DNA from: Gnetum montanum
Lineage: Eukaryota > Plantae > Gnetophyta
Direction: 5' to 3'
Assembly: GCA_015680685.1 (NCBI GenBank)
Contig: MNCI01000627.1
Span: 83,610 to 147,609 of the forward strand
Length of the DNA stretch: 64,000 nt
The position numbers and the translations under genes were made by a program. Under the pieces are notes generated by a model. The model was not told the origin of the DNA. It worked only from the letters and a program-made list of their open reading frames with translations, and did no database searches. Below are positions 1 to 34,337 of the stretch, in pieces. Numbering within the stretch: the first letter of the stretch is position 1; each line of letters opens with the position of its first letter.

Positions 1-1251
1 TGGTTGCCTATTTATAGTTTTCGTAAGACCTGATATCGGGGGTGAAAAATTTGCATTTTTCATGAAGTTTTAAGGATGGAAAATGATTCTCTTTGAATGT
101 CTATAAGGTTTAGAGTAGATTTAGAGGGTTTTGGATGATAGATGATGCATGTTTCATCAAAAATTTGGCACAAATAGTGTGTAAAGAAGGAATCTTGGGC
201 TATGAAAGTTTAGAAGATGGATAAGAAGGATAATGAATCTATGTTGTTAGAAAAAATAGTGTAAATGATATGGGAAGTTTTTATTGATGTGGGAAGGCTC
301 AAGATGATGTGGAATCACTTGGCAAGTATAAGATACAACAAATATACAAGTGGATCCTTCCCAAAGTAGGCTCTAGCCATTAATGCCCTTGTATAACCAT
401 GCTTAAAAACATCCTTAGGCAATTAAGGAGTTGAATGTAATGCATACATGTTTAGTAAAACATACATGTTAGTACCACAAAATTTGGAAAATTACACTAT
501 GTTATACAAAATCACAAGTTATGACTATTTTTACAGTGAGATGGGATGGACTTAGAAGGGATTGCAGAAATCGAGACATGAGGTGTCTTACCATATGCAT
601 AATAAAACCTTGTGCTTTATTAGTGGTTAAAGTAATCACTAGCTATTCTATTCAAGATTCAAACCAAGTCCAAACCACATTCCAATGACATTGCATTGTT
701 TCATCGCTTGGAGTCACAACTGTAAGACTACCACTATTACAAGGAGTATTATCACTTGGTGTATTGTCCAAGGGATGAGTTTATTCATGACACTTTTCTT
801 TATTTTTTGAGATTTCTAGGAAGCTGGCTACCTTCAAGCATGGATAACATGTCTTTCTAGTGGGACCCCAAGAAATTTATTTTGTGCTCTATTATTATTA
901 TTTTTTCCTGTGTTAACCTTTCAAGGTAGCACTTATTTTACTCTTACTCCGATTTTTCATTAGATCTACAAGGATATAATACAACCTTAACAACATTATA
1001 GAACTTACAATAGTAATCCAAAAGAATCCACAAATTCCCTTGATGTCACACTTTTTACATTCCCACTTGGTTCTTCACTTTTTGGTCCAAGTATAATGAT
1101 TACAAGTTTATTCTTAGTTGTATACTAGAAAAGAATATCATTATGGTCATGGTAAGAACCTCTTATTAATAGAATGGATGGTGTGGACTCACTGTTCGAA
1201 TAATTAGTCCCTTATGACTTGATAACATAGATAAAATTTCATCTTATTAGA

Positions 1252-4144: not shown

Positions 4145-4995
4145 TGATGAGCGGCTAGGTACCCCTACGTCCAACCATGTGAATCACAGGTGTTCACACG
4201 CGACTCGGTCGAATTCTGTAGATTGTAAGCACTTTGCATACACCAAACCCTAACCAGCAAAACCTTGTGTTAGAATGGTCGCTATCTTCTCAACCTCACT
4301 TGTGATGTTCTAATGGCAATGGTTAAGTCAGATTGAGGCACATGATTTTTATGGCTTTTTGCTTTATCTTTTGGTGTCTAATTCTTAGAATGGAAAGTAA
4401 GGTTGAAATATTATCTATAATTATCCTAATATATATCTTAACTATTCCTAGCATAAGTGTCTGATCCCATCTTCCGGGCACGTCCTGAGCATCCCCTAAC
4501 CAGTACTGGGTTACCAGACGTTAAGCGTCACTAGGTTGCCAAGTGTTGGGTTCACGTTCGATATGGTCGTACTTATGGTTTTTATGAACTATGAAAGAGT
4601 GATAGTGATTGAAATAACAACAACAGAAACTTAAGTAATTATCAAAGCATAACAATATTAAACTATTAAATGCATTAAATAACTAAGTCCAATTGCTGCA
4701 AGGAATGCTTGAAAAGTTCGTCTTTATTACTGTTCACGCCAATGGGCTCAGATACATCAATGCTCGAATAAAGAGTCAGACACCTTTCTTACACCTACTA
4801 TGGGCACTTGGAAAATATTCTAACTCTCACAAAAACAAACTACAAGAGCTTTGCTACAACTGCCAAAAAGGTACCTAAGTGAGGCAGAAGCCCTCTTATT
4901 TATATGCCGAAATAGGCTCCGCGTAAATGGGGTCACGTCGACGTGGCCACGTATACGCGGCCTAGTCGACGCATCGACTATTTAACACTTCATCA
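4145..4995 (-). repeat. 3' LTR of element A
   Basis: TGATG...CATCA termini, adjacent PPT, roughly 93% similar by eye to 21870-22755. Confidence 0.95.
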
Positions 4996-5242
4996 TACCC
5001 CCATGACTGAGTAAAAACTCCTCCTCGAGTTCCTCTACAATTTGGAAAGTATGGACTTTTATTTACAACACACATGACTTAACACACACATGACACAACA
5101 CCAACTTTACTGACGCACCAAGTGCCCGAGTATGCAGAGAAGAACAAATTAAAAAAATGGTGATGTTTAGAGATACAATTGAACACCCTACCGATCCTGG
5201 ATTCTTTGATGTGTTGAAAGATACAAAAATTGCCAGAGAAGA

Positions 5243-8057
5243 TCACACTATCCCTGGTGGCAGTGGTTTCGACGGACCTTCACTAGCCTCTAGCCCATGT
5301 GGTGGCGATGGCACAAATGATGGCTACCACGCAGCAACTACAACTTTTGGAGGCAATCGGAAAACCTCCAAAAGGGCTCTCATCTTTTCCTCCTTACTTC
5401 TGGGATTGTTCACTGTCTAGGCAACTTCACCAATGTGTGTTGGGACAGAAACCTCCCAAGGGCATGGCAGCACAGGGAAAAGTTCTTTCAAGTTGATGAA
5501 CCAGGCTACGAACTGTTTCCATTCGATGTCAAATGCTTGAATTGATGTCTATAGCTACTGGTAGTCATTTATTCGACAGGCTAGGTTCTCTACGACCATA
5601 CGTTGTCCTTCAAATTACGTGCGTAGAACCTCGAGTTCCGCATTTGCTATTTCCAATTTTTGTTTCGTTGCTTTGTGCGCTTGGAACTCGCCCTTGTATA
5701 GAGAATACGAGGTGGCCACTTGCTTTTCCAATTTAGACCACGGTCTCTCAGTTGTGAGCATAGCCAGGTTTGCATAGCAAAGGTTGGCAAGCTCCATATA
5801 CTCTGTCATTTTCTCAATCTTCAGTTCCTTGAGGTGGACTTCAGCTTGATTGTAGGCATTCAACCCATCAAAGATAGGTTGCCATACCTTGCCTCCTTCT
5901 TGGAGCTGCTAGAGTGCTTGGTTCATCTTAGCCTTTGCGACTTGAATCTATTTTTCATTCACTTCCTTTTGTAATCCCACTTGGTCCTTGTAATGATTCT
6001 TGACTTTTTCAAATTTTAGGGCCTCGTTCTTCCAAGCAACGATTTCGATGGCAGATTTCTATCACAAATTTTGAACCTCCTCCATGGACGGATTTTGATT
6101 CTCAATGGCCAACCTTCTCACATCATCATTCACCTTGGCTAGCTCTTCCTGCTGTTGGTGAATAAAATTTTTCATGTGCTTGTTTTCAACACCAACAGTG
6201 CGCAGGCGATGGACCTCCGTAGTCAACCTGAAGTTCTCCTGGCGAACCTCTATCAAGTCACTGTTTAAATGATATGTCTGAGCATTTGCCAAGGAATTAT
6301 CAAGGATCGTCAACTCTCAATCATCCTCAACTATCTGAAGTTTGACCTGAAGCTATTGAAAGGCTTCATCTCTAGTGAGCTCATGGTTGAGAAGAGCTAG
6401 ATCGACAAGTTCAATTCTTAATTGGACAACTTCTATTGCCAAGCATTGACAAGTAGCTTGAGCAGCTTCAAGTTGCCCTTCCAAAATGAGGCTCTTAGCC
6501 CTTGCCAAGAGCAGCTCTGATTAGGTTGCAGTGATGTTATCCAGAAGGTCAAAGACATATGGAAGCAATTGCTTGATTCCTACCAGTCAGTCCAATAGTT
6601 CTTCATGTTGTGCTGCATCAATTTTGCTACGTGAGGTTCCAACGAATGCCTGTACATCTTGAAGTCCATGTACGTCTGGTACAAGTGCCACCAATGCGTT
6701 GAGAGCCATAGTAATCGTATCATCAACCACTTTGGCCGTAATCTCCTGTCCTTGGTATTGCATCACCAGGACTGTTGCCCTCTCGCCATCTTCCAAGCAT
6801 ACCGAGAAGGTAGCAGCATTTCCTGAAATTTCAGGAAATAACTGTTGAGTGGATACTGTTACCTCTCAGATGCTAGGATACTTGTGTTTGGGCGGTGAAG
6901 AACATTGGTCATGCTCTTTCTAGCAAAATGACTAATCGAGCCACTTGCTCCAGGTGGCTCATTGCAGGGGGATAGACCGAAGGGTCTTCTCCTCCACCGG
7001 TCCTTCCAGATTACTCTTACTGGCTCAAGAGCAATTGTTGAATTTCATGGATGTGTTCTACAATAGTTTGCGAACCCGACCTTGTTGTTTGTGCAGGTGG
7101 TGGAGGTGGTTGCTGCTCTTCCTCCGTTTGTGTAGTGGCCGGAGTCCTATCCTTTATCATTTCGTGCCATGAGGCAATCAGGGCATGCCAGAGTATATCA
7201 TTGGCATACTGTGCTATCCTTGTTCATTTTCATAACTTTCTAATTAGGCAGGGGAAGGGGAGAGCTCATCTTCCACATTTGCTTTCAGCGAACCTCTTTT
7301 CAATTTCCAAGAATAACAACTATGGAAGGCTCATTGGAAATTTTCCATTTAAGGCGACGCATGCACAAGCGGAGAAGGTCGTGTTTTGCTGGGTCTTACC
7401 GTTGGGTTTAGGTGGTAAGATGTAATCTTTGAATACACCCTCTCCATGGTGGTTAGAGTGTCAAACTCCTTGCGATCCACCCCATAGCACCGTCTGATCC
7501 ACTTCGATTTTACCTGAAGGTCTACTTGCTTCAGGATCTCTGCCACATCTACTCCGATCTCTGGCAACCCCAAAGCTTGCGTGATTGCTTCTGTAGAGTA
7601 AGAGACATAGATGTCCTTAATCCTTACTCTAGACCTCGATTGCTGATTTGTCCAAAATAGGTAGATCTCTCCTAAGTACCATTCACCACTGGTTGTGATG
7701 ATTGGCCACATAGGAGAGTTTTGTAATTGAAGCCTCACATCTTCTGGTGCGTTTTCGAGAAATGGTCCAAAGTTTAACTCTTGTAGAACCATCTGTTGCA
7801 CTTCTCACGGCTTGATAGCATCAAGACATGCTTGGATCAGGGTGACCTCAAGCTGTGGTGCTATCCCTGGAGTTTCATCCCCTTGCGATTACTCATTGGG
7901 AATCTCCTCTTCGGGAATCTAATGGACAGATTCTAGTTGCATGAGAGCCCTCCGTGTGCTCTAGTTGCTGCACACCTTGTCCTCTTCCCATCCGTGGATG
8001 CTTGTCCCTAGGTTGTGATGGTCCTTCACCCCTTGGATTCCTTGGTTTTGGTGCCAT
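5243..8057 (-). pseudogene. Accessory ('env-like' position) ORF of element A: putative plant transposon protein (Transposase_32-like) domain, coiled coil and conserved C-terminal motif; disrupted
   Basis: ATG at 8057 directly after acceptor TTGATTGCAG. Fragments 7349-7801, 6587-6796, 6062-6313 and 5615-5863, plus the motif LPFPCLI.KL, are colinear and homologous with the element D ORF. Domain name is from motif recognition, not a search. Confidence 0.75.
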
Positions 8058-8470
8058 CTGCAATCAAACATAACCACCAATTAGACTGTGCACAAGTTGC
8101 TCAAAATGGCCCTCATACACCTTCTTAGTTTGACTTAGTTATAATGCTGGCACGGGCATTTCATTAAATCCCCCAGAGTGTTAATTCATGGGTTAGAGCC
8201 AAAAACAACAAGGATTCAGTTGGAGTTTAAGCTATTGTTTTCGTTTATTCCCTTAGAGATGCGAATTCTTAATTAACTAATTAATTAATTACACATAGGC
8301 TTCACCCCCCACAACTGAGAGCATACCTCTTAGTGCTTAAAGAGGGTAAGGATCGGTTGATGCAGACGCATGATAGAACATAGGTGCTTAGAAAGAAGTT
8401 AGGTATAAAAAATGGTAAAATCTCCCCCCAATTTGTTTGCAACATGATGGAAATCCTAGGCGCAACAGGC

Positions 8471-8560
8471 ATATATATAGGGGTTGGGCGTTGTGCCGAT
8501 GGGGTAGCATATACGCAGGGGGCTGCATATACGAGGCCTCGTATACGCAGGGGGTCACAC
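8471..8560 (-). promoter_or_regulatory. Putative internal promoter of the element A accessory gene
   Basis: CTATATATAT box at 8480-8471; three (G/C)(C)RTATACG-type repeats at 8507-8548; downstream GT donor at 8326 and AG acceptor at 8058-8059 directly before the ATG. Confidence 0.55.
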
Positions 8561-8981
8561 CAGTTGACCAGCGTTGACCAGCCAGAAAAAACCCAAAAAG
8601 ATGAATTTGAAACGTCAAATTGGGACGGTTGAAGAGCATGAGAGATTCGGAATGCTGCAGAGGGCAAGAGGAAGGGAAGTCGAGTTAGAAAAAGAGTCAA
8701 AGGTAGGAGAACGTGGTGAGAAAGAATTCCATGGGAAAGAAATCAAGCGACGGATAGCATGGAAACAAGTCACCACAAACCAAGGGGATGGGAGACTAAC
8801 AAGCAGAACCAGGAATATGCAAGTAGGTCCTCCCCATAGCAAGAGGTAGCCTTAGTAGCCCTTGCATATCCTCAACACTGGGGTCCATGGGTCCCAGGGC
8901 TAAGGAATGGTAATCACAAGTGAATACTCCCATCCATGAGAACCTGCTAAGACATGAGACGTGCAAAGGAATCACGACAAA

Positions 8982-9847
8982 TGATGAAGCGCTAAGCAGT
9001 TGATGCATCGACTGCGTTGACACGGTCCTATCGACGCATCCCTCCATGCGTCGACGTGGCCCTATTTACGCAGAGCCTGTTTTAGCCTATAAAAAAGTGG
9101 CTCTCCGCCACACTTAGGGACCTTTTAGTCAATTGTAGTGAAGCTTTTGTAGTTTTTTTCCGTAGGAGAGAATATTTTCCAAGTGCCCGCAGCAAGTATA
9201 AGAAAAATGATCGGCTCTTTTTCGAGCATTGATGTATCTGAGCCCATTGGCGTGACGACAATAAAGACGAACTCTTCAAGCATTCCTTGTAGCATTTGGA
9301 CTTAGTCATTTAATGCATTCAATAGCTTAATATTTATATGCCTTGATAATTACTTAAGTTTCTTGAATTATTAGTTTAATCGCTATTGTTCATTCATAGT
9401 TCATAGAAACCATAAGTACGACCGTCTCAAACGTAAACCCAACGCTTGGTAACCCAGTGACACTTAACGTCTGGTAATCTAGTAGTGGTTAGGGAATGCT
9501 TAGGATGTGCCTAAAAGATGGGATTGGATAATTATGCTAGGAATAGTTAAGATATAGATTAGGATAATTATAGATTAGATAATATTTCATTCCTTAATTT
9601 TCATATCTTAATTAGACGCCAAAAGATAAAGTAAAAAGCTATAAAAATTAGTTGCCTCAATCTCACCTAACCATTGCCACTAGAACACCACAAGTGAGGT
9701 TGGAAAGACAACAACCGTTCTAACCAAGGGTTTGCTAGTTAAGGTTTGGTATATGTTAAGTGCTTACAGTCTACGGAATTCAATCAAGTTGCGTGTGAAT
9801 GCCCGTGATTCGCATGGTTGGGAATAGGGGTACCTAGCCACTCATCA
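8982..9847 (+). repeat. 5' LTR of element B
   Basis: TGATGAAG...CTCATCA followed by PBS; homologous to the LTRs of A. Confidence 0.95.
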
Positions 9848-9985
9848 TTGGCGCCGTTACTAGGGATGATGCTAGTTATCTAGATTAGTTATATCATACA
9901 AGGTTGCTGTATAGGAATTAACGATATATCTTTTAAGAAGAAAAGTTTATAAAAAGTCACACATAAATTCACACACAATCTCACA

Positions 9986-11875
9986 ATGATGCCTCTCCTA
10001 CAAGACAATAATAATGTCACACCTAGTAAGGAAGTTCATTGGAGAACCAATGAACTATATGACAATGAAGATTGGAGTATGCAACCCGAGGTGGGGGTTT
10101 CTTATAAACATAAACGAAAGCAACATCATCCCAACACACAAAAGCATAACTTACCTGATGACGATGAACCGCCTCTAGCCACTACAAGCCTAACACAAAT
10201 ACAAGAGGCTGTTCGAATCTCCCATAGGCATCGTAAAGAGAGCCGTCTACCCAGGCTTGATTTAAACAACTTCCCTAATTTTTTAGAAGGCTATGACTTA
10301 GATCTGCATCAACATTTACAAGNNNNNNNNNNNNNNNNNNNNNNNNNNNNNNNNNNNNNNNNNNNNNNNNNNNNNNNNNNNNNNNNNNNNNNNNNNNNNN
10401 NNNNNNNNNNNNNNNNNNNNNNNNNNNNNNNNNNNNNNNNNNNNNNNNNNNNNNNNNNNNNNNNNNNNNNNNNNNNNNNNNNNNNNNNNNNNNNNNNNNN
10501 NNNNNNNNNNNNNNNNNNNNNNNNNNNNNNNNNNNNNNNNNNNNNNNNNNNNNNNNNNNNNNNNNNNNNNNNNNNNNNNNNNNNNNNNNNNNNNNNNNNA
10601 TGGGAGAGTGTTGAAAAACATCAATGGGACTAAAGTCTTAATTTAACAAAGGTCCATGATCATAAAAAGGAGAAATCAACCAATCTCAAGGTGGAAGAAC
10701 CATCTTTGCCAATACAACAATCGTTAGAAGAAGTCGAGGCAAAGATCAATAAGATGTTGGAATGGACGTATAAAAAGTGTGGAGAATATATTGATATTAT
10801 CGGAGATAGAGTTTTAACAACCCGAAAAGTAGGACAAAGTATCACTAGACAATGGGAAAGAAGGGTAGAAGAAAATAAGAGCCCAACCGCCAATCATACG
10901 TATGAATGCAACATATGCCTGTACGATCACCCCAAGGGTCAATGACCAATCTTGTTACATTTATATGAGCATTGGGGAAACACATTACACCCAGAGTTCA
11001 TACAGAAATACTGTGTTCGATCACAGTGGCAAAAATCCCAGTTGTGAGGGAAGCCACCCCTAAACTGAAGACACCCTTTGTACCAACCGAACCCAAATGC
11101 TTATCTAGTCCAATACCCTGTTTTTCCAACTGGGCCAACATACTCTATCTCACCGCATTGCCATTCTCCCCAATACTATCAACCCATATCCTCTCCAACA
11201 CAACCACCACCTTGGATACCTTACACTTCTCCTCATTTGCCACATTCTCAAACTTTTCCTCCTTCTACATTGCCACCAACTATTCCTAAGGCACCTGCAC
11301 CACAACAACAACCTCCAAACGTTACTTGTGCTACTGTCTCCAACAGCAGTGAGAAGCCTCCTCAACATCGAAGGCATCCCTTTTTTAGAAATGACCCTAG
11401 GAAGGGACAACACAATTTCGAGGCCACTACATCCTCCAACTCAGCACAAGTTCCACACTGTGGTGCACTCTTATCTTCGAACCCAACGCCTCATGTTACT
11501 TCATTAGGGCCACCAACAAACACTCCAACAACCATACGACCTAATGAACATAGGCATGGAAGGCAACGTCCTGATCCTTGCATACCATCTTTTGGTCACA
11601 AACATCATAGTGGGTCAACTACTTATCCAAGAACCACATCTTACAAATTTTCCCACTATGCTTACTATAATCAGGTGTGTGAACCTCGATGGGGTAAATA
11701 TGATCAAGTCCGAATATTTCCAACATGCAAGGATCCTCATAATCCATTTATTAATCCTTGCCATCCTCAACCATTTAGTTATGGAGAATATCCCCCATTC
11801 TACATAACAAGTAAGATTAATAGCCACCTTTTATTTTCTTTAATTTTACAACTTTTTTGTTTTCCAGTTCTTTAG
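9986..11875 (+). pseudogene. Degenerate gag of element B
   Basis: C-x2-C-x3-H knuckle, Pro-rich tail and HPFFR motif shared with element C gag; interrupted by the N gap at 10323-10599. Confidence 0.7.
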
Positions 11876-13490
11876 TTTTCAATTTCTTGTTTTATCATTT
11901 TGTCTTTCTATCTTTTTATGCTTTTGTAAGTAATCTCATCTACGAATAAAATGCTCATGTGGATCATTGGTTGAGGTGTGTTCTATGTTATCAAGTCTCG
12001 AGTAATCACTTATTTGGACAGCGAGCCCATTACACCCACTCATTCATTCTACAAATAAGAGGTTTTGTTCAAGGGTACAGTGATATTCTTGAAATTCTTA
12101 AAATTTAAAATTAATTTTGTGTTTATTGTACCCAAAATGAAGAAGAATGGACCAAGAGGAAATGATTGGGGTGTGACATCAAGGGGACTTGTAGATTCTC
12201 TTTGGTGACATCTGTGAGAGTTATCACGCAACGTAGTGGTACTAAGATCCTTGTAGATCTAACGAAAAATGGAAGTAAGAGTAATCAAAAGGGCACTCAA
12301 AGATCCAATGCTATTCTGGGGGGTCCCACTGGAAATACATGCACCCATGCCTGAAGGTTGGCGGCTTCTTCAGATTCAGCAAAGAATCAAAAAAAAAAAT
12401 AAGGAAAGCATAAAAAAAATAGAAGAGAAGAAGTGCCACAAAACAAAAAAAAAATCACTCCTCCCTTGAATAAAATGCCAAGTGATCGTACACCTTGTTG
12501 TTTTGGTACTCTCATAGTTGCTCATCATGGGATGAAACAATGCGATGTCACTAATTAGAGGAATGGACTTGGTCTTGATTTTGGAACGATGGGCTAATGA
12601 CACATTAATCATGCCCTACACTCAAGATTCATTGTGCCCTAAGTTAGTTACCTCATGCCCCAATCTCTGCAACCCCTTCTCCGATTCATTCCATCTCATT
12701 GTTCATGTATTTGTGACTCGTGTCTTGTATAGCATTGAATTCATACCTCATCATGGTGGTATCAACATGTGTGTGTTTTTTCGCATCGGTATAGATTACA
12801 TTTAACCCTTCTAGTCCCTACGAACATCTTAAGGTGTGTGGTTACACAAGGGCATATAGGTTGGAACCTGCTTTGGGGAGGACCCACTTGCGTGACTTTT
12901 GTAATTTGTACTTGGTTCACACCACCACATCATCTTATACCCTCCGAGTATTTCATTGCCAATTCTATTCTTTCCTTTGTCATCATTTTATCAAACATTC
13001 CTCAAAACCAGGTCCGACATTAGACTATTAGGGCAACGTCCTTGAAAAATTTCTAACTCTAAAATCACACTAAGTAAAGAATGCAACATTAATTAAAGGC
13101 AATAAGTAAGGTATGAAATCATTGAATTTTTTTCAATAACCTTACTAACAATTGATCTTTGTGTGATTATAGATNNNNNNNNNNNNNGCTCATAATCCTC
13201 AAATAGAAGAGGAGAAACGTCAGGTGCTTCTTCAATGGTATCAATCTTAAAAGCCTGATGCACAGGACAAAGGAAAGGCACCCATGGAGGAGCCACCACC
13301 ACCGGGAACCCCATGAGTTCCACAAGTTTTGTCTTTTGTGTCTATGTCCAAATTTTTTTTAATCCTACACTGCGACATGAATAAATTTCTAGTTAGTCAA
13401 TACTCCCATACCTATCCATTGTGTATTTAATTAAGCTTGTTCCTCACCTTCTTTGACTCGAGGACGCGTTGTTATTTAGTCATGGGAGTA

Positions 13491-14378
13491 TGATGAAGCA
13501 CTAAGCAGTCGATCCATCGACTAGGCCATGTATATGGGGCCTTGTATATGCGGCCCTATCGATGCATCCATCCATGCGTCGACATGGCCCTGTTTATGCA
13601 GAGCCTGTTTTAGCCTATAAATAAGTGGCCCTCTGACACACTTAGGGACCTTTTAGTCAATTATAGTGAAGCTCTTGCAATTTGTTCCTACATGAGATAT
13701 AATATTTTCCAAGTGCCTGCAGCAAGTGTAAGAAAAGTGATCGGCTCTTTATTCGAGCGTTGATGTATCTGAGCCCATTGGCATGATGGCAATAAAGACA
13801 AACTCTTCAAGCATTCCTTGCAACATTTGGACTTAGTCATTTAATGCATTCAATAGCTTAATATTTATATGTTTTGATAATTACTTAAGTTTCTTGTATT
13901 ATTAGTTTAATCGCTATCGTTCATTCATAGTTCATAGAAACCATAAGTATGACCATCTTGAACGTAAACCCAACGCTTGGTAACCCAGTGACGCTTAATG
14001 TCTGGTAACCCAGTAGCGGTTAGGGAATGCTTAGGATGTGCCCAGAAGATGGGATTGAATACTTATGCTAGGAATAGTTAAGATACAAATTAGGATAATT
14101 ATAGATTAGATAATATTTCATTCCCTAATTTTCATACCTTAATTAGACTCCAAAAGATAAAGTAAAAATCTATAAAAATCAGTTGCCTCAATCTCACTTA
14201 ACCATTGCCACTAGAACACCACAAGTGAGGTTGGGAAGACAACGACTGTTCTAACCAAGGGTTTGTTGGTTAAGGTCTGGTATATGTTAAGTGCTTACAG
14301 TCTACGAAATTCAACCGAGTCGCGTGTGAATGCCTGTGATTCGCATGGTTGGGTGTAGGGGTACCTAGCCGCTCATCA
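13491..14378 (+). repeat. 3' LTR of element B
   Basis: Preceded by PPT, followed by TSD; roughly 91% similar by eye to the 5' LTR. Confidence 0.95.
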
Positions 14379-15599: not shown

Positions 15600-18500
15600 A
15601 CTGGTTAGGTGGAGTTCACGAAAAGGTTTTAATTACTGTCGGTTGACCAATTGCGTTCTTGTGGGGTCCTCAGGTTTGTGGATAAGTAAGGCCCTGAATG
15701 GAAAGGTTTTGAAGACAATGTAAGGTCCCTCCCACAACATTCGAAACTTGGTCGGTTGTGGTACGTGTGTGGGGTTCCAATACAACACCTTATCTCCACA
15801 TCTAAACATGATCTTCCGAATTCTAAGATCATGACATTTTTTATTGTAGGCCTTGTGGATCTCATTTGAAGATAAGGCCACTAATTGGTTCTCATCTAGC
15901 ACACTTAGGTTCATAAGTCATTCGCATTGTGCTAGTGGTAGGTCAAGCCCTAAGTCACTGGCTGTGGATAGTACCCGGAGTTCTGCCTAGACTAGAAGCT
16001 TCGATAGCTTATGGTACACTAACTCATAGGAAGAGTAACCTATAGGAAGTTTCCAAGTGGAGCTATAAGCCTAGAGTGCATCGTTAAGTTTGGTGCTCTA
16101 GTCCCTCTTATATTCACTAATGGTTCAAGTAATGATCTTGGTGATCTGCCTATTGGTAACTTCGACTTGCCCATTGGCTTGGGGTGGTAAGATGTTGTGA
16201 ATTTATGGGTAACCCTCAAGTGTTTCATGAGTTTATGAAAAGTGATACCCATGAAACGGGTTCCATTGTCTGAGATAAGTGCACGTGGCACTCCAAACCT
16301 GTTGATGATTTACTATTGGAAAAATCGTGCGACGGTGTTTAAAGAACAGTCGATGACAGTTGCCGCCTCCACCCACTTTGTGTAGTAGTCCACAACGACA
16401 ATGATATATGCCTTTCTATTGCACAGGGATGCGATGGGTCCCATGAAGTCGATGCCTAAATGTTGAATGGCTCCAGTGATTGGATCCACTTCTGAGGTCC
16501 CTCTATTTGTGCAGTAATCCCACCATCTCTCTGGCATTGTTCCCAGGAGTGGGCGAACCATTGTGCATCCCTAAAAATGGTGGGCTAGTAATATCTTGCA
16601 AGCAGGATCTTAATGAATGTACGTCGTCCAGCATAATGGCCCCCACAAGGACCCTCGTGAGCATCTTGGAGGACGCATAGTGTATCATCATCAGGGACAT
16701 ACCATCGAACTAGGCCATCTGCACACACCTTATAAAGGTGACCATTAATTTCCATGTAGTGCTTGGCCTTGTGGAGAAACTGTTGTTTCTACTGATGGTT
16801 CCACTTCTTTGGCAACTCCTGAATTGTGAGATAGGTGAGGATGTGGCTGAACCAAGGTGATGTTTTGGGCACCTGCGGATCGACCGCACCTGCGAAGAGG
16901 AGTTCATCTAGAAATTGGTAGGAGAGGGGCTCCTCCTCTTCTACATCATCCCATTGCAACTAAGACAAGTGGTCAGCAACCACATTCTCGGTCCCCTTCC
17001 AATCTACCATAGTGAGGTCAAATTTCTGAAGAATCACCAGCCACTGGATGATACGAGGGCTCACTGTTGGCTTGTTCATCAGGAACCGGATAACACTATA
17101 GTCAGTATGCACAAACACCTTGTACCCGAGCACATAGTGTTGAAATTTTTCCAAGGCGAACACCACCGTCATCAACTCCTTTTCGGTGGTGGTGTAGTTA
17201 AGCTAAGCACCCACAATGTTATGGCTTGCACAATGGATATAGTATGGGCATTTTTTATCATCCCATTGTGTAAGCACGACTCCCAAGGCATAATTGGATG
17301 CATCCGTCATGATGTGGAAGGGCTTGGACCAATCAGGTGCCCATAGAATTGGAGTCTCTACGAGTTTCTGTTTGAGCGCTTGGAATGCAGATTCACATTC
17401 CTTGGTCTAGATGAACAGAGCATCTTTCTTTATGAGTTCCACCAACAGCTTGGCGATCTTCGAGAAATTTTCGATGAAGTGTCGGTAGTAACCAGTGTGG
17501 CCAAGGAATGACCAAACATCTTTTACAGTGCTGGGTTGTCGGGTGATTCCTTGGATGACCCTGATCTTTTTAGGATCCACACTAATCCCTGTCTGTGAGA
17601 TACGATGCCCTAGCACAATGTCCTCTTGGACCATTAAGTGGCTTTTATGCCAATTGAGCCATAGATTAGTGTCCACACATCTTTTCAGAACTTGCTCAAG
17701 GTGGTCCAAGGCTTGTTCGAACGTGGCCCCATGGGTAGAGAAGTCATCCATGAAGACTTCTACCCCATTGCCAATTTGCTGCTGGAAGATGCTAAGGACA
17801 AGGCGTTGGAACGTGGCAGGCACATTACATAGGCCAAAAGGCATCTTCTTGTATGCGAAAGTCCCCTAGGGACTTGTGAAAGTTGTCTTGGCCTGGTCCT
17901 CTAGTGCAATTTGGATTTGGTTATAGCTACTATAACCATCCAAAAAGTTGTAATAATGATGCCTTACAATGGTGTCCAACACCTGGTACACAAATGGAAG
18001 TGGGAAGTGATCTTCGAAGGTAGCCATGTTGAGCAATCAGAAATCTATACAGATCCTCCATTTACCATCCTTCTTCGGCACAATAACGAGTGGGCTGACC
18101 CATTCGCTATCGACAATAGAATAGATGAACTCCGCTTTGAGCAATTGCTCAATCTCATCTTTGATGACTTGCTTCAATTTGGGGTTCAACCACCTTTGTG
18201 GTTGACGTCATGACTTCATGGAGGGGTCAATATAAATCTGATGTTGGTAGACCCTGGGATCAACTCTGATTAACTCAAGATATGACCATGCAAAAGTAGC
18301 ATCCCATTTGTTCATCACCTTTAGCAACTTCTTCTTTTGTTCAGGAGTAAGGGTGGCATTGATAATTAGCGGTTTTCCATTTTGCAAAAATGCATATTCT
18401 AAGTGGGCCAGTAAGGCTTGAACTCCAAGGGCTCTTATTTGAAGCTTTCAAGAATTTGCAGCTATCCCTAATCATCATGGTCATCAACAGTGGATACTTA

Positions 18501-19206
18501 TTGATAAACCTATTCCAAATTATCCATGCTCTCTATGTAGGCTTGTACAAGCCCCTCAGATGGTTCCATGCATAATGTGCTGCTAGCAGGATCAACTGTT
18601 AGCCACTAGGTGCCCTCTTGATTTGTGGCTGCTACGTATAGGCACTGTTGAACTAGCGATTCTTCGGTACATCGACTACATGCTTGAATGGATGTTTTCT
18701 TGGCGGACCATAACTGCTACACACAGTTGCACCCTAAGTCACTGTACGCGATGCATGGAACGTGCTTCTTCTCGATCTTTCCAAGAGGATTTTTCTTTGA
18801 AATTTTAAGGGAAAGATCTCGGAGTCCTAGTTTTGCATCCACTATGCTCAGCCAGGCTCTTCCCATTATGATTAGGAAGTTTCCCTTGTAATTATCTACA
18901 CGGATGACAAGGAAATCAACAGGATAAGACCACCCGCAAATGGTGGTCACAATGTCTTCTACTAATCCTAAGGGAACAGTAATGGATTGGTCTGCTCGAG
19001 CTGATGTTGCTCTTCTTTAATGAGGGCAGGTTCCAATTCTTGTACATGTCATGGGAGATCAAGTTGATTCCTGACCCTGAGTCCAAAAGAGCTTTACATG
19101 GCTCATTCCCTGCCACCTGAAGATAGATGAGGGGGCTTCCCGGATCAGTCAATTTCCATGGAAGATGCTCTGCCTTTATCCAATCGGTCACAGCATGTGT
19201 GAGCAT
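15600..19206 (-). pseudogene. Degenerate pol of element A (protease, reverse transcriptase, RNase H, integrase)
   Basis: PR LLDSGSGINLI (18916-19206). RT MPFGLCNVPATFQR...VEVFMDDF...SFLGHTGYYR (17407-17844). RH TDAS and VVFALEKF...ENVVADHLS (16960-17350). INT GIDFMGP...VDYYTKWVEA, ISDNGT and WEGPY (15633-16561). Many stops and frameshifts. Confidence 0.95.
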
Positions 19207-19316
19207 GACCGTTTGTACATTGAAGGATGTTTGGTTTAAAGGCTACTCGAGAGGTGGAACAGTGAAGGCATTTTGAGGTTCAGAGGCACTAGCCACATGT
19301 GTATGTGAGGGTATGT

Positions 19317-21725
19317 TCAGATTATTGGACTGAAAAAAGGGATGTTTTCGTGGTTTGGGTTCCGGTGCACTCGACTGAGGTGCCAGTTGTAGGTTGATAG
19401 CCCTCGTGGCATGGTGTTGCGTTGATGTGGATATGGTGGTATCTCCCCCTGCATAGGTGGAGCAGGTGGTAGTTGAGTGGGATGTTGTGGAGAAGGAACG
19501 ATAGGAGAAGGTGATGGAGGATAATAGAGATGTGGGCCTTCCCCCCTAGGTGATGGAGATTGTGGTTGGAAATATTCCAAGGGGTGATAATAATGTTGAA
19601 AGGTTGCGTGACTGGAAGAGTTCCGCGGGGAGACTGGTTACTGAACATAGTACCCATAAGGATTTGGCTGTCGGTAAGGATATTGCTACCTTGGAGGTGG
19701 CATTCCCCACGCTTGTGGGTGCTGCCATTGCTAGAAGTATTCATAAGGTTGCGGTGGTGCTCCACTTGGATAATACCCTTGTTGCCGGTGGAACTGCCTT
19801 GGGTTGCCTTGTGGGTAAGGCAAGCTTCAGGATGTTTGCCTCTTCGCCAAGTGAGGATTCAACACGTACACCCTAGACTCTTGTAGATGTGACACCATAG
19901 GACAACACCCCTTAGGATGTTCGTATTGGCATATGCCACATTCAACATCTTCCTCCATGTCAAAGTTTGCAACCAATTCTGGTACAACAACTTTTCCCTT
20001 ACCCTTATGGTGGGCATGTTCAACTTCCTTCTTCCTACGCCGATCACGATCATTACCTTGCTCTCTGGACTCTTCTGCAATCTTTAGCACACTTTGGAAT
20101 TTTTCGTCCAAAGAGTCCTACATCTTATCAACCTTTGTCGATATTTCAAATGTAAACTTTTGTAAGGGCAAGGTTTTTCAGTTCACCGTTGCTTCCAGTG
20201 ATGATTCCTCCTCATCTTTACAAAATCGGACTTCCTTCTTTCTGATGGAAGGATCCTAATTAAAGTCCTCTGCACTCTCCTTCTTCCTCAGCTCCCCATC
20301 CTCTTTGACCACCTACTCAATTAGGCGCTGCAGTTGATGGGCCCTTAGTTCTGATAATCATCCCTAGGCGTACATGCCAATGGTCTTCCTAGTTTCAAAG
20401 CAGAGCCCATCAATGATATGGTGAAGTTATGCCCACTGAGAGTAGCCATGACTAGGGCATCAGTGTAGCAGTGAATAGTATCTGCTCATGGCTACATCCA
20501 AGGGTTCATGATTACCTTGCTTCCACCCTTGGATCTAACGTCTCAGGTTTGCCACCCTGGAGTAGGTTTGATACTTGTCATTGAAGATCTCAAGCATCAT
20601 ACTCCATCTTCTGATTGATTCTAGTTCCAAAGATCGGTACCAAATTTCTGCTTCCTTGATGAGTGTGTGAGGGAACAGCTTAAGTTTCTACCAATCATTA
20701 TCAATATTCTGCAGAGTGCAAGCGTCATGGAATGCTTGCAGGTGAGTTTGCATATCACAATTGTATTCCCCTTCAAATCTGGGGATGTTGTTCATGTCAA
20801 TGCATTTGATCCAACTGTCTTTCAAGTGCTTGCTGGGTATCTAAACTGCCTCGGCAATATGGAGCATGCTCCGAGTAGCCAATAGTGGCTCATCCGAGTC
20901 ATAGTCCTATTGAGTGCCACGATGTCTGTGACGATTCTGGCTACCCCTCCTTTCATGACGGTGAGGCTCACGTGATTGGTCACATGCTTCCTCACGTCGT
21001 TCCCTTCGGTCCTTCCGACCACCATCACCTCACTCCTTTCTACCACAGTTACGATTAGAGTCTAAACTGGATGAAGGTAGAGGGGAGTGAGAGGATGGAG
21101 AAGAGGAAGAGGAATCGCCACCACTCTGGTGTCAATCTCCCCCTCTACTCTAATGTCGGCCTCGATCTTCTTGCCCATTTTTGCTTGTGTCGTGACCCCT
21201 TCTACGTGATCCTCCATCTTCCTGGGGGTCTTGGTCACTAAATTGCTTGTTCTGAATGATGGACTAAATGATCTAATGCCCTAGAGGAAGTTTGACCGAA
21301 TGGGAATCCTAAAAGATAGGTTCCCCTTCTTCTTGTAGCCCTTGCAAGAATAAGAAGTTACTGAATTGTTTTCCCTTCATGTGTTCATATCGTTTTGCCT
21401 GCTACTAGTCTCATACCCATTGGGCCTTGGTGGGACAATAGTCCCGGTAGTCATGGTCCTCCATGACGTACTCCATACCGTGGTCCTGGATGCCTAGTTT
21501 GGCAAGATTGTGAAACAGCATTCCAAGAGTCAATCGGTCAGGTGGTAATATGATGTTGCCTTCCATGTCCCGCCAATGCAAATGCTCATCCTGATGTAGG
21601 ATGAAGGTGAAATTGGGGACATATTCATCGAGATGCGTGTATACCACCCGACATTCTTGTGGCACTCGTGGGTTGGATTCATCTCGCCTACGAGAAGAAG
21701 ACATGTTGGATGTTAGATAATCCAC
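19317..21725 (-). pseudogene. Degenerate gag of element A
   Basis: Begins about 125 nt after the PBS; retrotransposon gag core (KLFPHTL...W) ~20400-20800; knuckle CGICQYEHPKGCC in ORF 19827-20111; Pro-rich tail. Confidence 0.85.
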
Positions 21726-21869: not shown

Positions 21870-22755
21870 CGATGAGCGGCTAGGTACCCCTACGCCCAAC
21901 CATGCGAATCATGGGCATTTACATGTGACTCAGTCGAATTCCCTAGACTGTAAGCACTTTGCATACACCAGACCCTAACCAGCAAAACCTTGTGTTAGAA
22001 CGGTCGCTGTCTTCTCAAGCCTCACTTGTGATGTTCTAATGACGATGGTTAAGTGAGATTGAGGCACATGATTTTTATGGCTTTTTGCTTTATCTTTTGG
22101 CATCTAATTCTTAGAATGGAAAGTAAGGTTGAAATATTATCTATAATTATCCTAATCTATATCTTAACTATTCCTAGCATAAGTATTTGATCCCATCTTC
22201 CGAGCACATCTTGAGCATCCCCTAACCACTACTGGGTTACCAGACGTTAAGCGTCACTGGGTTGCCAAGTGTTGGGTTCACGTTCGAGATGGTCGTACTT
22301 ATGGTTTTTATGAACTATGAAAGAGCGATAGCGATTGAAATAACAACAACAGAAACTTAAGTAATTATCAAAGCATAAAAATATTAAACTACTAAATGCA
22401 TTAAATAACTAAGTCCAATTGCTGCAAGGAATGCTTGAAAAGTTCGTCTTTATTGTTGTTCACGCCAATGGGCTCAGATACATCAGTGCTCGAATAAAGA
22501 GCTAGACATCTTTCTTACACCTACTGCAGGCACTTGGAAAATATTCTAACTCTTGCGGAAACAAACTGCAAGAACTTCACTACAACTGCCAAAAAGGTAC
22601 CTAAGTGAGGCGGAAGCCCTCTTATTTATAGGACAAAATAGGCTTCGCGTAAATGGGGCCACATCGACACATGGAAGGATGTGTCGATGAGGCCGCGTCG
22701 ACGCAGTTGCATATACGCGACCTAGTCGACGCATGGACTATTTGACACTTCATCA
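21870..22755 (-). repeat. 5' LTR of element A
   Basis: Adjacent to PBS and flanked by TSD; TATA (CCTATAAATAAG, minus) at ~22621-22632. Confidence 0.95.
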
Positions 22756-23203
22756 GTTCATATGGTCGAGTAATGTATTTCGTTTCATGATACCCTTCAA
22801 GTGCTTCACTTAGTTTCAACCCCTTGAGAGTAGTTTGGAGCATAATGGGTGTTGAATGTCTTGATGGTAAAACAATGTTTCCTTGAAGATCCCTCCATCT
22901 TAAGTAGATGTCTTGATGAAAGATGAATTTGAAATCAGGATACTAAGGATCACGAAGAGCATATGAAATCCTTGTCTACATTGGCATACTCTAGTCTTCT
23001 TTTTCTTCAATTTTGTCATTGCTTCTCTGTAGTTCCTTGGCAAGTGATGTGGTTTTCTTGTTTGAAGCCATATTATATTTTAAGACATTTTTTAAGTGTG
23101 CTTTTCTTAAAATTATGAAGTTTGACTTTGTGTTTCAAGTACAACGAACTTTGTGGAATCAATTACTAAGCATACATTGACTTGTTCCCGTTAATGGCAC
23201 CAA

Positions 23204-24110
23204 TGATGAGTAGTGGAGTAATCCAATACCCAACCATACAAGATACGAGTGTTCACATATGGCCCAATTGTAATTCGTGGATGAGGTAATGTGAATATGC
23301 TAGTAATCGTTGTCTTCCCACGTGGAGCTAGTATAATCTATGCGTATGGTTTAGCTCTCAGTGAAGTGTATGATATATTGATGTTGGTAGGCTGTAACTC
23401 CAGGCTATGATGGTAAAGTGTGAAAATGATTCTAACTCCTAGCTATGATGGTAAAGTGTGAAAATGATTTTAAGTCTAAGGAAAATGGTAAAATAATCTA
23501 CTCTAGCTTAGAGCAATGAGCATCCATTCCTAGCTTATCGTGCATGCCTTGGGCTCATGTAACCATTACAAGGATTACCAAGTGAGTTCACTACTAAGCA
23601 AATCAAGAGAAACCTTTACTGGGTTACTAAACAATTATACTTAATGCTCAAAACCAATTGTACGCATTCTGCTTTACTATGAACAAGGAAAGTAAAGTAC
23701 TTAGAAATGTAACTGATTGAACTAGGAAAATGGTAAGAATTATGCTAAGTAAAATAATAAAGCTAAGTGGATGCTACAATGATGGAAAGCAATCTCAATC
23801 TTTATTTTCATCATGAACTATGCCTAAGTACACTTGCCTCAAATAAAGATTCCCAAAAACTACTCAGTATCACACTACAGGTATTCACTCTTTATGGATA
23901 AAACTACAAAAACAAATTGCAAGAGTCTACCTAAGGTTGGAATGAAAAGATATGCAACTGTGCACTTAAGTGTCTTATTTATAGGCAGGCACATGTGGAG
24001 TGATATCAGATATTTGACATCGAAGCTTGTGCCTCAATATCGGCGATCTGATATCGTGGCTTCGATATTGAATATCCAATATTGTAGCCATGATAAAACG
24101 TGATTTATCA
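23204..24110 (-). repeat. 5' LTR of element C
   Basis: TGATGAG...TTTATCA termini, adjacent Asp-type PBS, homologous to solo LTR 33454-34337; internal 38-bp tandem duplication ~23404-23470. Confidence 0.85.
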
Positions 24111-26635: not shown

Positions 26636-28798
26636 TTAGAACTCCCTCGGGTCCACAAAGATGGAGGTCCCAGGTGGGCTCTGAGTCCAGTCCTCCTCCT
26701 GTTGTTGTTGTGGGTCATCCTGAGTGGAGATGAGTTTTTTGATGCACCAGAGATCTTCAGTGCAGGAGAAACAGTGCCAGTGAGGAATGGTCTGCCTGAG
26801 TGGGTCACATGCCCCAAGCTCTGTGGCAATCACAGCACAGTTGCCATCCCTCCTTGCCATGTTGTGGATGGAGCTCCACAGGCACAGAGCCATGTCAGCC
26901 CCTCGTGGCCCTTCACTGTACACACCATACACAAAGTAGAGCCCAAATGGCCTGAACACATTTGGGATTGAAGGGATGCTCAGCCATGGCAGGGCTCTGT
27001 CAAGAGCCCTACTCATGGCTGCATAAAACCTTGTGGCCACTGACACACCTTTCACCTTCATCTTGAACACTTGACTACAGTTCCACACACTGGCCACTGC
27101 CCAAGACCTGGACCTGGACCTGAACCTGGTTTTGCTGCTGTTGCTTTCAGATTCAGATTCTTCTGCTTCATCATCATCATCATCACTGGTCATGCTCATG
27201 ATGGATTGAACTTGTGCTGCTTCTTCATCATCTTCCATGGCCACAAATGTGCCCAGGGATAGTGGGTTCCCCAGCACTGCCTCAATGTCTGCAGGGAAGA
27301 ATTCCACAGTGCCAAAGCAGGTTCTGTACAGAGCTGTGGCCTCAGGGATGCTCAGCTTGTGGATCTGGACTGGGTTCTGGTTTGCTGCTGCTGATCTGGG
27401 CTTTGATTTTGAGGCTACTGCCGCTGGTTTGGAGTGCTGGTGCACTGGATGCACAAGAATGGCTGGAGTCCTGAACTTGCAGAAGTTTCTCTTATCCACG
27501 AACAGGCTTATGCATGCCTCATTTTCCTTCTCTGTGGCCATGTACACGTACTCTGCTCCCTTTTCCATTGCCCACTTCTCTGCTTCCTCAACCAATTTCA
27601 ATCCTATTCCCTTCCTCCTGCAGTTAGTTCATGAATTCAGCTGCCATCCCATTAGTCATACTCAAGAGTTTATAAGGCTTGTAATCGTGATTGAACCAAA
27701 CACGAATATATGTATACATATATATATATATATATCCCTATCGGATATCGTAGTCATCAGCTAAATTTAATTTTCCCAAAATCTAATATCAACCCAAAAT
27801 CATGGCAATTGGATTCCATTCAAGAAAAGATTGTCTAACCAAAAATTTGTGTACCTGTGGTTGGGTGATACTCTGAGGCCCAGAATATAAGCTGTCTTGG
27901 CAAAAAGAGGCTCTGATTCTAATCCCTGCGACTTGCTGTTAGTTCCTCTTACTACAGTCTTGATGGAGACCCTTATAAGCCCCACCATCTCCTTCTCAGG
28001 CCCATACTCTGCAACCTGCCATACATTTGATGCAAATTCAAGTTAAAATTCCATAACCACGTGGAATCACTTCAGAAACCCAAATATCCAATGGATAAGA
28101 ACCAGTCAATGAATCAGTGGACTTCAACCTCTTTAAGAGAATGTGTGGATCATGGGTGGGTGGTAAACTTTCAACTTTGTAAAACAATGAAAGAGATAAA
28201 GAATCACAAATTGCTTCTCAATTAATCCAGGGAAGAACAAGTAACCGAATTATTAAACTTGGAGGTTAACAAAATAATAAACAGATGGATTGGCAAACTA
28301 GATAAAAAATGAAAACACAATTACGGATGAATCAAAAATGGACGGTCAAATCCAAGGAGGAAGTTGCAGCCTTGCCGGATTACGATGAACCAATTAGCTA
28401 GTAAACCTGCAGCTTAGCAGCTAGTAGTTAGCAAACCTCTTTAGCTTTTGCAGGTGGATATCAGTGGATAGCAAAGAAGTAAAGCAAGAATGAAGTCATG
28501 AACTGACACAAAAATCATATCCAAACTACAGACAGACACTTATTATTATTATTAGCTTGTCATAGACGCAGCAGCAGCAGCAGATAGATAGATAGAAACT
28601 CACAAGCATTATGAACAGTGGAGAATGACGAATCCTGCAGAGTGGGTCTCCTTGTAAATCAGTGTAAAGTGCCACACTACCACTAGGTCCAACCTCACAC
28701 CGTCTTTCCATCTCTTCTGCTCTCTGGGCATCCCTCTCCATCATGAATTCCCTAACCTCAATCATCATCTTCTTCTTCTGCTTCTGCTGTCCTTCCAT
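26636..28798 (-). CDS. HLS1: HOOKLESS1-like GNAT N-acetyltransferase (3 exons, 445 aa)
   Basis: Exons 28798-28604, 28015-27855 and 27617-26636 with canonical GT-AG introns join in frame (1338 nt). Motifs CEVGPSG, GDPLCRIRHSP, AYILGLRVSPNHRRKGIGLKLV (acetyl-CoA motif), YMATEKEN and C-terminal FVDPREF are characteristic of the HLS1 family. Orthology versus paralogy is not established. Confidence 0.93.
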
Positions 28799-32599: not shown

Positions 32600-33440
32600 C
32601 AACATTCTTAGATAGACCATCTAATCACTTTAAAATATCTTATTGATAACCTTATTGATAAAGCAAAAGGTCCATATAAGAAAACATTTAATTGCTTAGT
32701 AGATTTCTCTAAGGCATTTGATTTCGTCATATGTAGCAAGTTATAGAGGTGCTTGATATATTTAGAAGTTCTAGCACACTAGTATCTACCATCAAAATCT
32801 TTACAAAGAGGTATGCTTTCAATTTGGGCAAGAAAGAATTTTATTTAATAGTTTTATCAGTGTAAAAGAAGGATGTTCTCTTTTTTCTACTTTTTTTGGG
32901 TTCTTCTATTGATGAGCCTAAAAAGTGGATTCATAAAATACTAATTCAATTTGCAATTACAATTGGAAATAGTCCTATTAGACTCTTTAAGCTAATGATT
33001 GTGTTTTAATTTCAAATTCAATGAAAGATTGCAACAAATGCTTAATACTCTTGATAACTTTTCTTAGCATTCAATAATGAACGTTAGTGTCCACTTTGTA
33101 GCACATGTCATAAAATATACAATTTTATTATAGGAAATGAACATGTGCACATAACCTCCTCTTATAAATATCTTAGCTTAGAATGCTCATCCAATGATAA
33201 ATAGAATCAATATATTACTCAAAGAGCTATAAGTAGTATGAAAGCCTTAACAAGGAATCTATTTTGGCTTGGGATATTAAAAAAGAACTATATCATATCA
33301 TTGTTTAACCAACTATTTTTTATAGATGTGTCGAATAGGGTCTCGGTTTAGCAAATAAATATAAGAAATTTAGAAACCTTTTCTACTTGATGAATTCATA
33401 GTGAAGAGACAAACACAATTTAATATTATGCTTCTTTAAG
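32600..33440 (+). mobile_element. Decayed LINE reverse transcriptase fragment
   Basis: VDFSKAFDFV (~32699-32728) and VKEGCSL (~32862-32882) resemble the non-LTR RT motifs DFxKAFD and GVxQGCPLS; boundaries approximate. Confidence 0.65.
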
Positions 33441-33453
33441 GAAAGATGATGCC

Positions 33454-34337
33454 TAATGAGCGATGGAGCAATCCAACACCCAACCATAGAAGTCACAAGT
33501 GTCCATGCATAACCTGATCATAATCCATGGATGAGGCAATGTGAACATGCTAATAATTAGTTTTAAGTCCATGACCATTGTCTTCCCACATGGAGCTAGT
33601 GAAGTCTATGTGTATGGTTTAGCTCACCGTGAAGTATATGATATCTGATGTTGACTAGCCATTATGACTGAAAATGGAAATAATTTCTAAGTCTAAGTAA
33701 AACAAGTAACAAGTCTATCCTAGCCTAAGGTGATGGATATCCGATCCTAATTTTTCGTACATGTCTTAGGCTTATGTAATTGTTACTGGGATTACCAAGT
33801 ACCTCACTATTAGATGAACCAAGCGATAATACTACTGGGTTGCCAAATGATCACACTTTACACTCAAAATCAATCATATCAATTCCGCATACTAACAACA
33901 ATAAAAGTAAAATGTACTTTGGAAAAGTAAAACATTAAGCTAGAAAACATGAAATATTATTCTAAGTAAAACAAAAAAACTAAAAGAATGTTGCAATAGC
34001 ATGAAATAGCTCGATCTTTATTGTCGGTGACACTTGTGCCCAAGTACAAGATGTTCAAATAAAGACTCCATTCACTAAGTCACACTCCACTATGGGCATT
34101 CACACTTCTAATTGCTAAGTCTAAGTGAACAAAACGAAACTGCAAGAGTTCTACTATTAGTGAAATGAAATTTATGCAAATTCGTGCACCCAAGTGTCAT
34201 ATTTATAGGGCTACACACATCCTAAAATATCATATCAACAATGACGTAGCATGTGCTATATGATATTGAATTTACAACATCGTTGATGCGATATCGTTGT
34301 TATGATATCATTTGTGGACAAAAAATTGAATTTATCA
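33454..34337 (-). mobile_element. Solo LTR of the element C family
   Basis: Homologous along its length to 23204-24110; flanked by 5-bp TSD ATGCC (33449-33453, 34338-34342); no PBS or PPT. Confidence 0.9.

Follow-up and report, generated by a model that had tools for sequence, protein, structure and literature searches.

Two decayed Athila-like Ty3/gypsy long terminal repeat (LTR) retrotransposons, elements A and D, lie in the 64-kb stretch of DNA analyzed here (the window), and in both of them a candidate internal promoter precedes an accessory gene placed between pol and the 3′ LTR. Judged from the sequence, the layout of this promoter is conserved between A and D, its palindromic motifs are shared above chance with the U3 region of the element's own LTR, and the accessory open reading frame (ORF) bears traces of old purifying selection. 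The anatomy is most probably that of a shared enhancer which drives a separate, spliced accessory mRNA. Given that anatomy, a self-reading step has about an even chance. As a whole, the reading in which the accessory protein recognizes the palindromes of both the internal promoter and U3, switching on or keeping unsilenced itself and the LTR, is put forward tentatively, at somewhat less than an even chance, and the identity of the palindrome reader is its least certain part.

The layout ahead of the accessory ATG is orthologous in the two elements and consists of a box, a TATA, a donor, a branch point, an acceptor and the ATG, all on the minus strand. In A, the internal enhancer (8480-8558) opens with the box GTGACCCC at 8558-8551 and continues with three palindrome copies, each of them CGTATACG or its one-decay form (8540-8547, 8526-8533, and 8508-8515), up to the TATA at 8470-8479. 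The predicted leader intron (8058-8326, 269 nt, GT..AG) has a branch-like CTAAT at 8084, a 62% AT content and seven ATGs inside; the leader exon of the present copy has two ATGs of its own. The respective enhancer of D (62130-62203) includes the same box and two doubly decayed CGTCGACG units flanking the spacer CATCCCCAT, like D's own U3, with the TATA at 62121-62129. Its predicted intron (61686-61973, 288 nt) keeps an intact donor, a branch-like CTAAT at 61713 and seven ATGs, and the acceptor is now AA. The box is common to the internal sites of A and D and to the 3′ U3 of A. The TATA-to-donor spacing is about 154 nt in A and 156 nt in D, whereas the surrounding non-coding DNA is poorly alike. 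Since seven ATGs are found in each predicted intron, the accessory ORF would need splicing for its translation. The layout, when searched as a pattern, is found at two loci (A and D) in 64 kb versus 0.02 per shuffled window; the pattern was defined after both loci had been seen and shows rarity, not discovery. The coordinates and motifs quoted in an earlier note on this DNA are all exact in the sequence, and its proposal of an internal promoter with a leader intron is supported by the layout conserved in A and D.

The internal 120 bp was compared with the own U3 of each element using dinucleotide shuffles of both. The observed sharing of 7-mers was reached in 1/2000 shuffles for A against its 5′ U3, in 6/2000 against its 3′ U3 and in 0/2000 for D. 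In a position-blind scan with U3 7- and 8-mers, the top window of A is located at 8460-8579 (rank 1 of 1123 overlapping internal windows) and that of D at 62150-62269 (rank 1 of 515). The best U3-matching stretch in both elements is the region of ~70 bp ahead of the internal TATA. The box-to-TATA segments of A and D gave a score of 18 with each other, compared with 43 for A and 40 for D against their own U3, values reached by 0/764 and 0/837 background windows, respectively. The two segments appear to have diverged from each other with each one tracking its own U3, a signature of concerted change which is supported in these two elements only. Single 9-10-mers of A are weak alone (reached in 39/2000 and 97/2000 shuffles); the A match is strong because of its three tandem copies and a block colinear with U3 over 61 bp. 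A third putative site, in element C (9-45, minus strand), has the box TCACCCCC, one CGATATCA unit at 31-38 and a TATA at 17-10, and its downstream gene falls beyond the window edge. For C alone, the 9-mer shared with its own U3 was reached in 202/2000 shuffles and the alignment in 61/1000, and the internal site lies outside the top windows of this element. The match of the internal motifs to the own U3, as stated earlier, is above chance for A and D, by shuffles and by window ranks, but not for C taken alone.

The shared k-mers are CpG-decayed forms of the palindromes CGTATACG, CGTCGACG and CGATATCG, usually within GCG...CGC arms; a palindrome carries half the information content of its length. 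At no more than one CpG decay, CGTATACG is found six times in the 64 kb, that is, three times in the internal promoter of A, once in each U3 of A and once elsewhere. When up to two CpG decays are allowed (background 0.02-0.04 per 120 bp), the two U3s of A have 3+1 CGTCGACG and 1+1 CGTATACG units, and the internal site of A has none of CGTCGACG and three of CGTATACG. The U3 of D includes three CGTCGACG units and its internal site two, with CGTATACG missing from both. Units of CGATATCG number five, four and three in the U3s of element C and of two further LTRs (E and F), respectively, and one at the internal site of C. The motifs covary, as CGTATACG is present in the U3 and the internal site of A and in neither site of D, and the spacer CATCCCCAT in both sites of D. 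CpG richness as the sole cause was rejected, since 40/1123 windows of A and 16/515 of D are equally CpG-rich and have no motifs.

The accessory ORFs of A (5244-8057) and D (58775-61685), both on the minus strand, have about 930 codons. The former has stops and frame changes near 7870, 7380, and 6825; the latter is decayed and 40-64% identical to that of A in pieces. Differences between them at the first, second, and third codon positions are 26/15/47 over 84 codons and 85/43/134 over 250. Third positions change most and second positions least, which shows that the encoded protein was once under selection. Its N-terminal part has weak matches to PF20167, with E 1.7e-7 (31.7 bits) in D and E 0.0045 in A, both short of the 45-bit cut-off. 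In the ESM Atlas, ranks 4-5 (at 0.92) are clusters in which 65% of the members carry PF03078 and 14% PF20167. The long helical C-terminal part (~500 residues) was read by eye as a coiled coil. The top 19-residue Kyte-Doolittle mean is 1.68 in the helical part of A (over seven pieces) and 1.21 in D, without a clear membrane segment, and because the maximum is only 1.68 the protein is not clearly an envelope protein. No sequence match for a VANC/DUF1985/PMD-type domain was found in the PDB. Two fold models, from alignments of five and three rows, reached pLDDT values of 44 and 47; at this low pLDDT they gave no Foldseek match at E 0.001, and with VIA-align the best Z was 6.6 over a 45-residue helical hairpin, with 0/48161 chains at Z 8. 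The ESM Atlas search with the two Athila families skipped returned no usable match.

Intact relatives of the accessory protein were absent among the longer proteins (0/215 and 0/93 candidates). The profile search retained one of 522 candidates, the 103-amino-acid fragment P0001, which was already part of the profile. The 50%-cluster library gave three matches, of which P0001 is real (39%, E 5e-13) and the other two were rejected as repeat-driven artefacts. Scans for the accessory locus confirmed 0/163 stretches in metagenomes and 0/8 in viral contigs. Pattern scans returned 127 loci, none of which matches the accessory ORF; a single one (L010) has a related reverse transcriptase (RT) and integrase (INT) and ends before any accessory gene. 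Its contig is filed in a bacterial metagenome-assembled genome, the gypsy RT is 48% identical to that of A over 450 residues, and it is likely plant DNA in a bacterial bin.

The closest precedent, missing from those that the earlier note had listed, is found in the Sireviruses (Ty1/copia), where element-specific CpG-rich palindromes precede the LTR TATA and recur ahead of an extra 3′ gene (PMC2829016, Bousios et al. 2010). In that work, 77/79 linker copies precede ENV, env-less elements have no linker copies, and an internal promoter was proposed (PMC2829016). The same repeated-motif design is seen in A and D, whose palindromes are upstream of the LTR TATA and of the extra gene. In element B (8982-14378) an accessory ORF and an internal motif cluster were looked for and neither was found, as in the env-less Sireviruses (PMC2829016). 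The resemblance is in design only, as the domain order here is that of gypsy and not of Ty1/copia. Besides, Sirevirus motifs have a CGG-CCG core in 8-32 copies (PMC2829016), whereas here CG-armed 8-10-mers are present in 1-5 copies per site. In the available parts of the same report no internal promoter is pinned down and self-binding is not proposed, whereas A and D have a resolved and conserved set of predicted signals, from the TATA through the donor and the branch to the acceptor.

With Athila, the elements share the sense ORF between pol and the 3′ LTR, the acceptor at the ATG, the long non-coding linker, and, by weak Pfam and ESM Atlas matches, the domains PF03078 (Athila ORF-1) and PF20167 (Transposase_32) (PMC6317226, PMC11728184). 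A sense extra ORF 3′ of pol with an Athila ORF-1-type domain and a long non-coding linker is a mark of Athila within the OTA superclade (Neumann 2019), and it is found here; structure and domain content are the grounds on which the elements are called Athila-like. They differ in the length of the ORF, about 930 codons compared with 487 in the sunflower case, and in the long coiled-coil-like tail without a clear membrane segment (PMC11728184). The sunflower PF20167 Athila protein has a predicted nuclear localization signal (PMC11728184), and the Athila domain and VANC are both predicted as coiled-coil pentamers (PMC13547354). VANC, in turn, binds family-specific motifs (PMC5735166). VANDAL transposons resemble the present system in having an accessory gene and lineage-varying short motifs clustered in non-coding regions, but they are DNA transposons with non-palindromic motifs in long tandem arrays, for which binding and demethylation have been shown, whereas the present case is one of sequence only (PMC5735166). 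A link of the VANC system to PMD/MAIN has been described (PMC13547354, bioRxiv 2024.09.27.615353), and Pfam found no DUF1985/PMD match here. By analogy, the system works like the repeated-motif design of Sireviruses and may work like Tas or VANC, being a member of neither.

In foamy viruses the internal promoter lies in env, whereas here it is located in a non-coding linker. The likeness is that a single LTR element has two promoters, of which the internal one serves a spliced accessory mRNA (PMC8670036, PMC4929722, PMC13220597); the foamy virus protein, Tas, is unrelated, and its action on both promoters is proven. Grande has an accessory gene with its own promoter (PMC7264820), and for Retand TRP28 a regulatory DNA-binding role was suggested (PMC11963269). 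Both Grande gene23 and TRP28 are similar to the present gene as accessory genes with their own promoter, a nuclear or predicted DNA-binding product and a proposed regulatory role, but they are antisense, have a PF04195 domain and belong to the Tat clade, and in the available parts of these reports a U3 motif match is not described (PMC7264820, PMC11963269). In Arabidopsis, 3′ internal (TSI) transcripts rise upon methylation loss (bioRxiv 2021.05.30.446350), and element-encoded methylation control in Athila was raised as an open question (PMC12844716). In a literature search with subscription papers outside its reach, no report was found in which the internal promoter of an Athila element has motifs matching U3, or in which a PF20167/PF03078 protein binds DNA. 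The shared-enhancer design is real and, as far as the literature was searched, new for Athila, with its layout precedented in Sireviruses in 2010.

In the proposed mechanism, transcription from the internal TATA would make a short leader, which would be spliced to the ATG and yield the accessory protein independently of the genomic RNA. The internal enhancer would be refreshed from the U3 array, with units presumably copied between the two sites by template switching or conversion, and would be kept because one factor must read both. The element's own accessory protein is narrowly favored over a host factor for this role, because three lineages carry three cores at both sites, because the internal cluster is missing where the ORF is missing (element B), and because analogy with related proteins makes a nuclear, oligomeric protein seem likely (PMC11728184, PMC13547354). 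A wider version is possible and is advanced with more reserve. According to it, the env-like Athila protein would be a sequence-specific DNA-binding activator or anti-silencer and not an envelope. It would recognize the CpG palindromes peculiar to its lineage, both those of U3 and those of its own internal promoter, and so close a Tas/VANC-style positive feedback loop in one of the largest clades of plant retrotransposons. Non-autonomous partners, B among them, could use the loop in trans, and the layout would have arisen in convergence with that of the Sireviruses.

Several results weigh against the accessory protein as the reader. No DNA-binding domain was recognized in it, and a Pfam search allowing E values as high as 10 found neither PMD nor DUF1985 nor Transposase_28. 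The internal site of D shares a 12-mer with the 3′ U3 of A (1/2000 shuffles) and a 10-mer with the 5′ U3 of B, and its scores of 28-32 against the U3s of A and B are reached by 0-1 of 837 background windows, so that the signal is leaky within the A/B/D clade. The motif specificity, as read from such scores, is at the level of the clade and not of the family. The 3′ U3 of B has CGTATACG-type units in the slot holding CGTCGACG in A; with either unit able to occupy this slot, a single reader would have to tolerate CGTATACG as well as CGTCGACG, or else the core is unread. Moreover, the internal site of A has CGTATACG units only and its U3 more of CGTCGACG. The informative elements are only two, and copying together with a host factor could also yield both the clade-level specificity and the interconversion of units.

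The U3s within the A/B/D clade often have the same internal window as their peak. The internal segment of A shares a 27-bp block with the 3′ U3 of B (score 42), compared with a score of 16 against the U3 of D. This match is near-cognate because B is a close kin of A (the LTRs, leaving the U3 array aside, are 85% alike). Even so, the match shows the internal segment to be a colinear copy of a U3 stretch with interconverting units. The U3 arrays compared are those at 22631-22755 and 4905-4995 in A and at 8982-9087 and 13491-13615 in B, and between the LTRs of a single element entire motif blocks are gained or lost, 34 nt in A and 19 nt in B. The U3s of the other clade (C, E, and F) do not match the internal regions of A or D (scores 14-20). 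Strict family specificity was rejected, given that the internal site of D matches the U3s of A and B and that of A matches the U3 of B. The earlier view that the motifs differ between families applies between clades and only in part within the A/B/D clade. Its concerted evolution of two promoters is borne out insofar as the A and D segments track their own U3, and is qualified by the clade-level specificity and the interconverting units. The comparison with shuffles and non-cognate pairs, by which it had proposed to refute the idea, leaves A and D above shuffles and separates the clades, but separates elements within a clade only partly.

The same leakiness fits a different account, an appreciable if doubtful possibility, in which the internal promoter borrowed the U3 enhancer and a host transcription factor or a CpG-island/demethylation pathway turns on the genomic RNA together with the accessory mRNA, the accessory protein having another role, such as the assembly of particles, import into the nucleus or integration. 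The specificity at the clade level, with units that interconvert, agrees with such a reader, and the three cores are all built alike, as palindromes whose arms contain CG. In Sireviruses, most boxes matched host sites related to stress in PLACE, and boxes of distant elements are nearly identical (PMC2829016). Against this account, a host reader gives little reason for the core to change in step at two places, with three cores in three lineages. Unlikely, in our view, is a purely mechanical origin, in which hairpin-forming palindromes are template-switch hot spots in reverse transcription and U3 units were copied into a pre-existing similar site and homogenized without a shared reader. The good folding of the U3 arrays (z -5.2 for the 5′ U3 of A, -1.8 to -2.3 for three others), the block indels between the LTRs of A and of B and the 61-bp colinearity of the A segment agree with it. 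However, the copies are found exactly between the conserved box and the TATA in both elements and nowhere else among the 1123 and 515 windows, and the internal segment of D folds no better than shuffles (z -0.5). Past the internal TATA, the sequence bears no likeness to an LTR (scores of 16 and 24), hence the internal promoter as a relic LTR was also rejected.

Slightly less probable still is the expression of the accessory ORF by long-range splicing of the LTR transcript, in the manner of env, with the local TATA and donor being incidental. The acceptor directly ahead of the ATG is the classic Athila/Bagy-2 arrangement (PMC7264820, PMC2829016), and a donor-like site exists in the LTR of A near 22517. 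Against this route, A and D have kept the same local TATA and donor at like spacing, with a U3-type cluster immediately upstream; the route could coexist with that of the internal promoter.

What the extra 3′ gene does in Athila and Sirevirus elements has been debated for about 25 years (PMC7264820). The locus offers a candidate target, namely 8-10-bp palindromes at two defined promoters, and since three lineages carry three cores, cognate versus non-cognate binding is directly testable. If the protein does read the palindromes, LTR retrotransposons, like VANDAL transposons, would possess a sequence-specific means of escaping methylation, and this could explain lineage-specific bursts and the sunflower Athila clade with hypomethylated LTRs (PMC12844716). 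If a host factor reads them, the locus would be a second case of the 2010 Sirevirus design, of modest interest.

RNA reads of the same species were aligned from four runs on A and four on D (six different runs, about 26% or 2% of each). In total 5186 reads aligned on A and 4295 on D, of which only 1 and 7, respectively, have at least 99% identity. Among these few diverged reads, with a depth below 7 at the start of the coding exon, there was no joint on A, and neither of the two joints on D is that of the predicted leader intron. Leader exons are non-coding, and those from other copies would be hard to align here, so that the missing junction neither supports nor refutes splicing. A read pile in the intron of D (two runs) has an orientation opposite to the LTR reads and was not counted as support. 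Hundreds of reads match at 4990-5034 and 58540-58580 over no more than the purine-tract/LTR junction, beyond which they continue into different U3 arrays, often of the GATATC type. Many relatives are thus transcribed in this species, in which one conserved junction is followed by varied U3 modules. At 4723, in the LTR of A, 103 reads of one run have a poly(A) tail, likely a 3′ end used by relatives.

Self-comparison and Pfam scans resolve the window as a nest of decayed Athila-like Ty3/gypsy LTR retrotransposons, with paired LTRs with TG..CA ends, 5-bp target-site duplications (TSDs), a primer binding site (PBS) and a purine tract. Element A runs on the minus strand from 22755 to 4145 with gag, RT, RNase H (RH) and INT in the Ty3/gypsy order. 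Its 5′ LTR (21870-22755), the end of which has now decayed to CG, includes the U3 palindrome array (22755-22631) and a TATA from 22630, next to the TSD TGAAC at 22760-22756. The adjoining PBS (21868-21851) is presumably of tRNA-Asp type. The decayed gag-pol (15900-20700) matches Retrotrans_gag, RVT_1, RT_RNaseH, Integrase_H2C2, and rve in Pfam, and the closest solved relative of its RT/RH is the Ty3 RT/RH (E 1e-58). In the Pfam scan of the reading frames of A there is no match for an extra archaeal-type RNase H or a chromodomain, and RH runs straight into INT; as the copy is decayed, other positions are possible. The 3′ LTR (4145-4995) has its U3 array at 4995-4905, the purine tract just upstream and the TSD TGAAC at 4144-4140.

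Element B (plus strand, TSD ACAAA) is a pol-less relative of A nested in the linker between the integrase and the accessory gene. Within 13100-13300 of its plus strand, a donor-like site near 13110 and a D-like, acceptor-like stretch just before the assembly gap 13176-13188 are found, followed by a short proline-rich coding remnant, possibly of a deleted accessory gene. Element C, pol-less within the window, hosts A; its 5′ LTR (23203-24110, minus strand) has the CGATATCG-type U3 array. Element D, on the minus strand, is represented by its linker, accessory ORF and 3′ LTR (57700-58545, U3 array 58545-58436). LTR E starts at 63816-64000 (plus strand), is inserted head-on into the integrase region of D and has four well-preserved CGATATCG-type palindromes ahead of its TATA, the least decayed array in the window. 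LTR F (33440-34345, minus strand) is 66% like that of C, with a decayed CGATATCG-type array, and is probably solo, as no adjoining internal domain was seen.

The LTR pairs have Kimura two-parameter (K2P) distances of 0.08-0.10, mostly transitions, and the copies are therefore old and dead. The nested B (0.095) exceeds its host A (0.081), although the nested element should be the younger one; the reversal may lie within sampling error or reflect methylation-driven rate differences. Another LTR pair (88% alike) at 47296-53828 surrounds a decayed polyprotein, judged by eye as copia-type. An apparently intact host exon of a GNAT acetyltransferase (26636-27628, minus strand, PF00583 E 1e-7), which we take to be of the plant HOOKLESS1 type, likely has further exons upstream. 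Along with the retrotransposon domains, this exon points to a plant source of the DNA.

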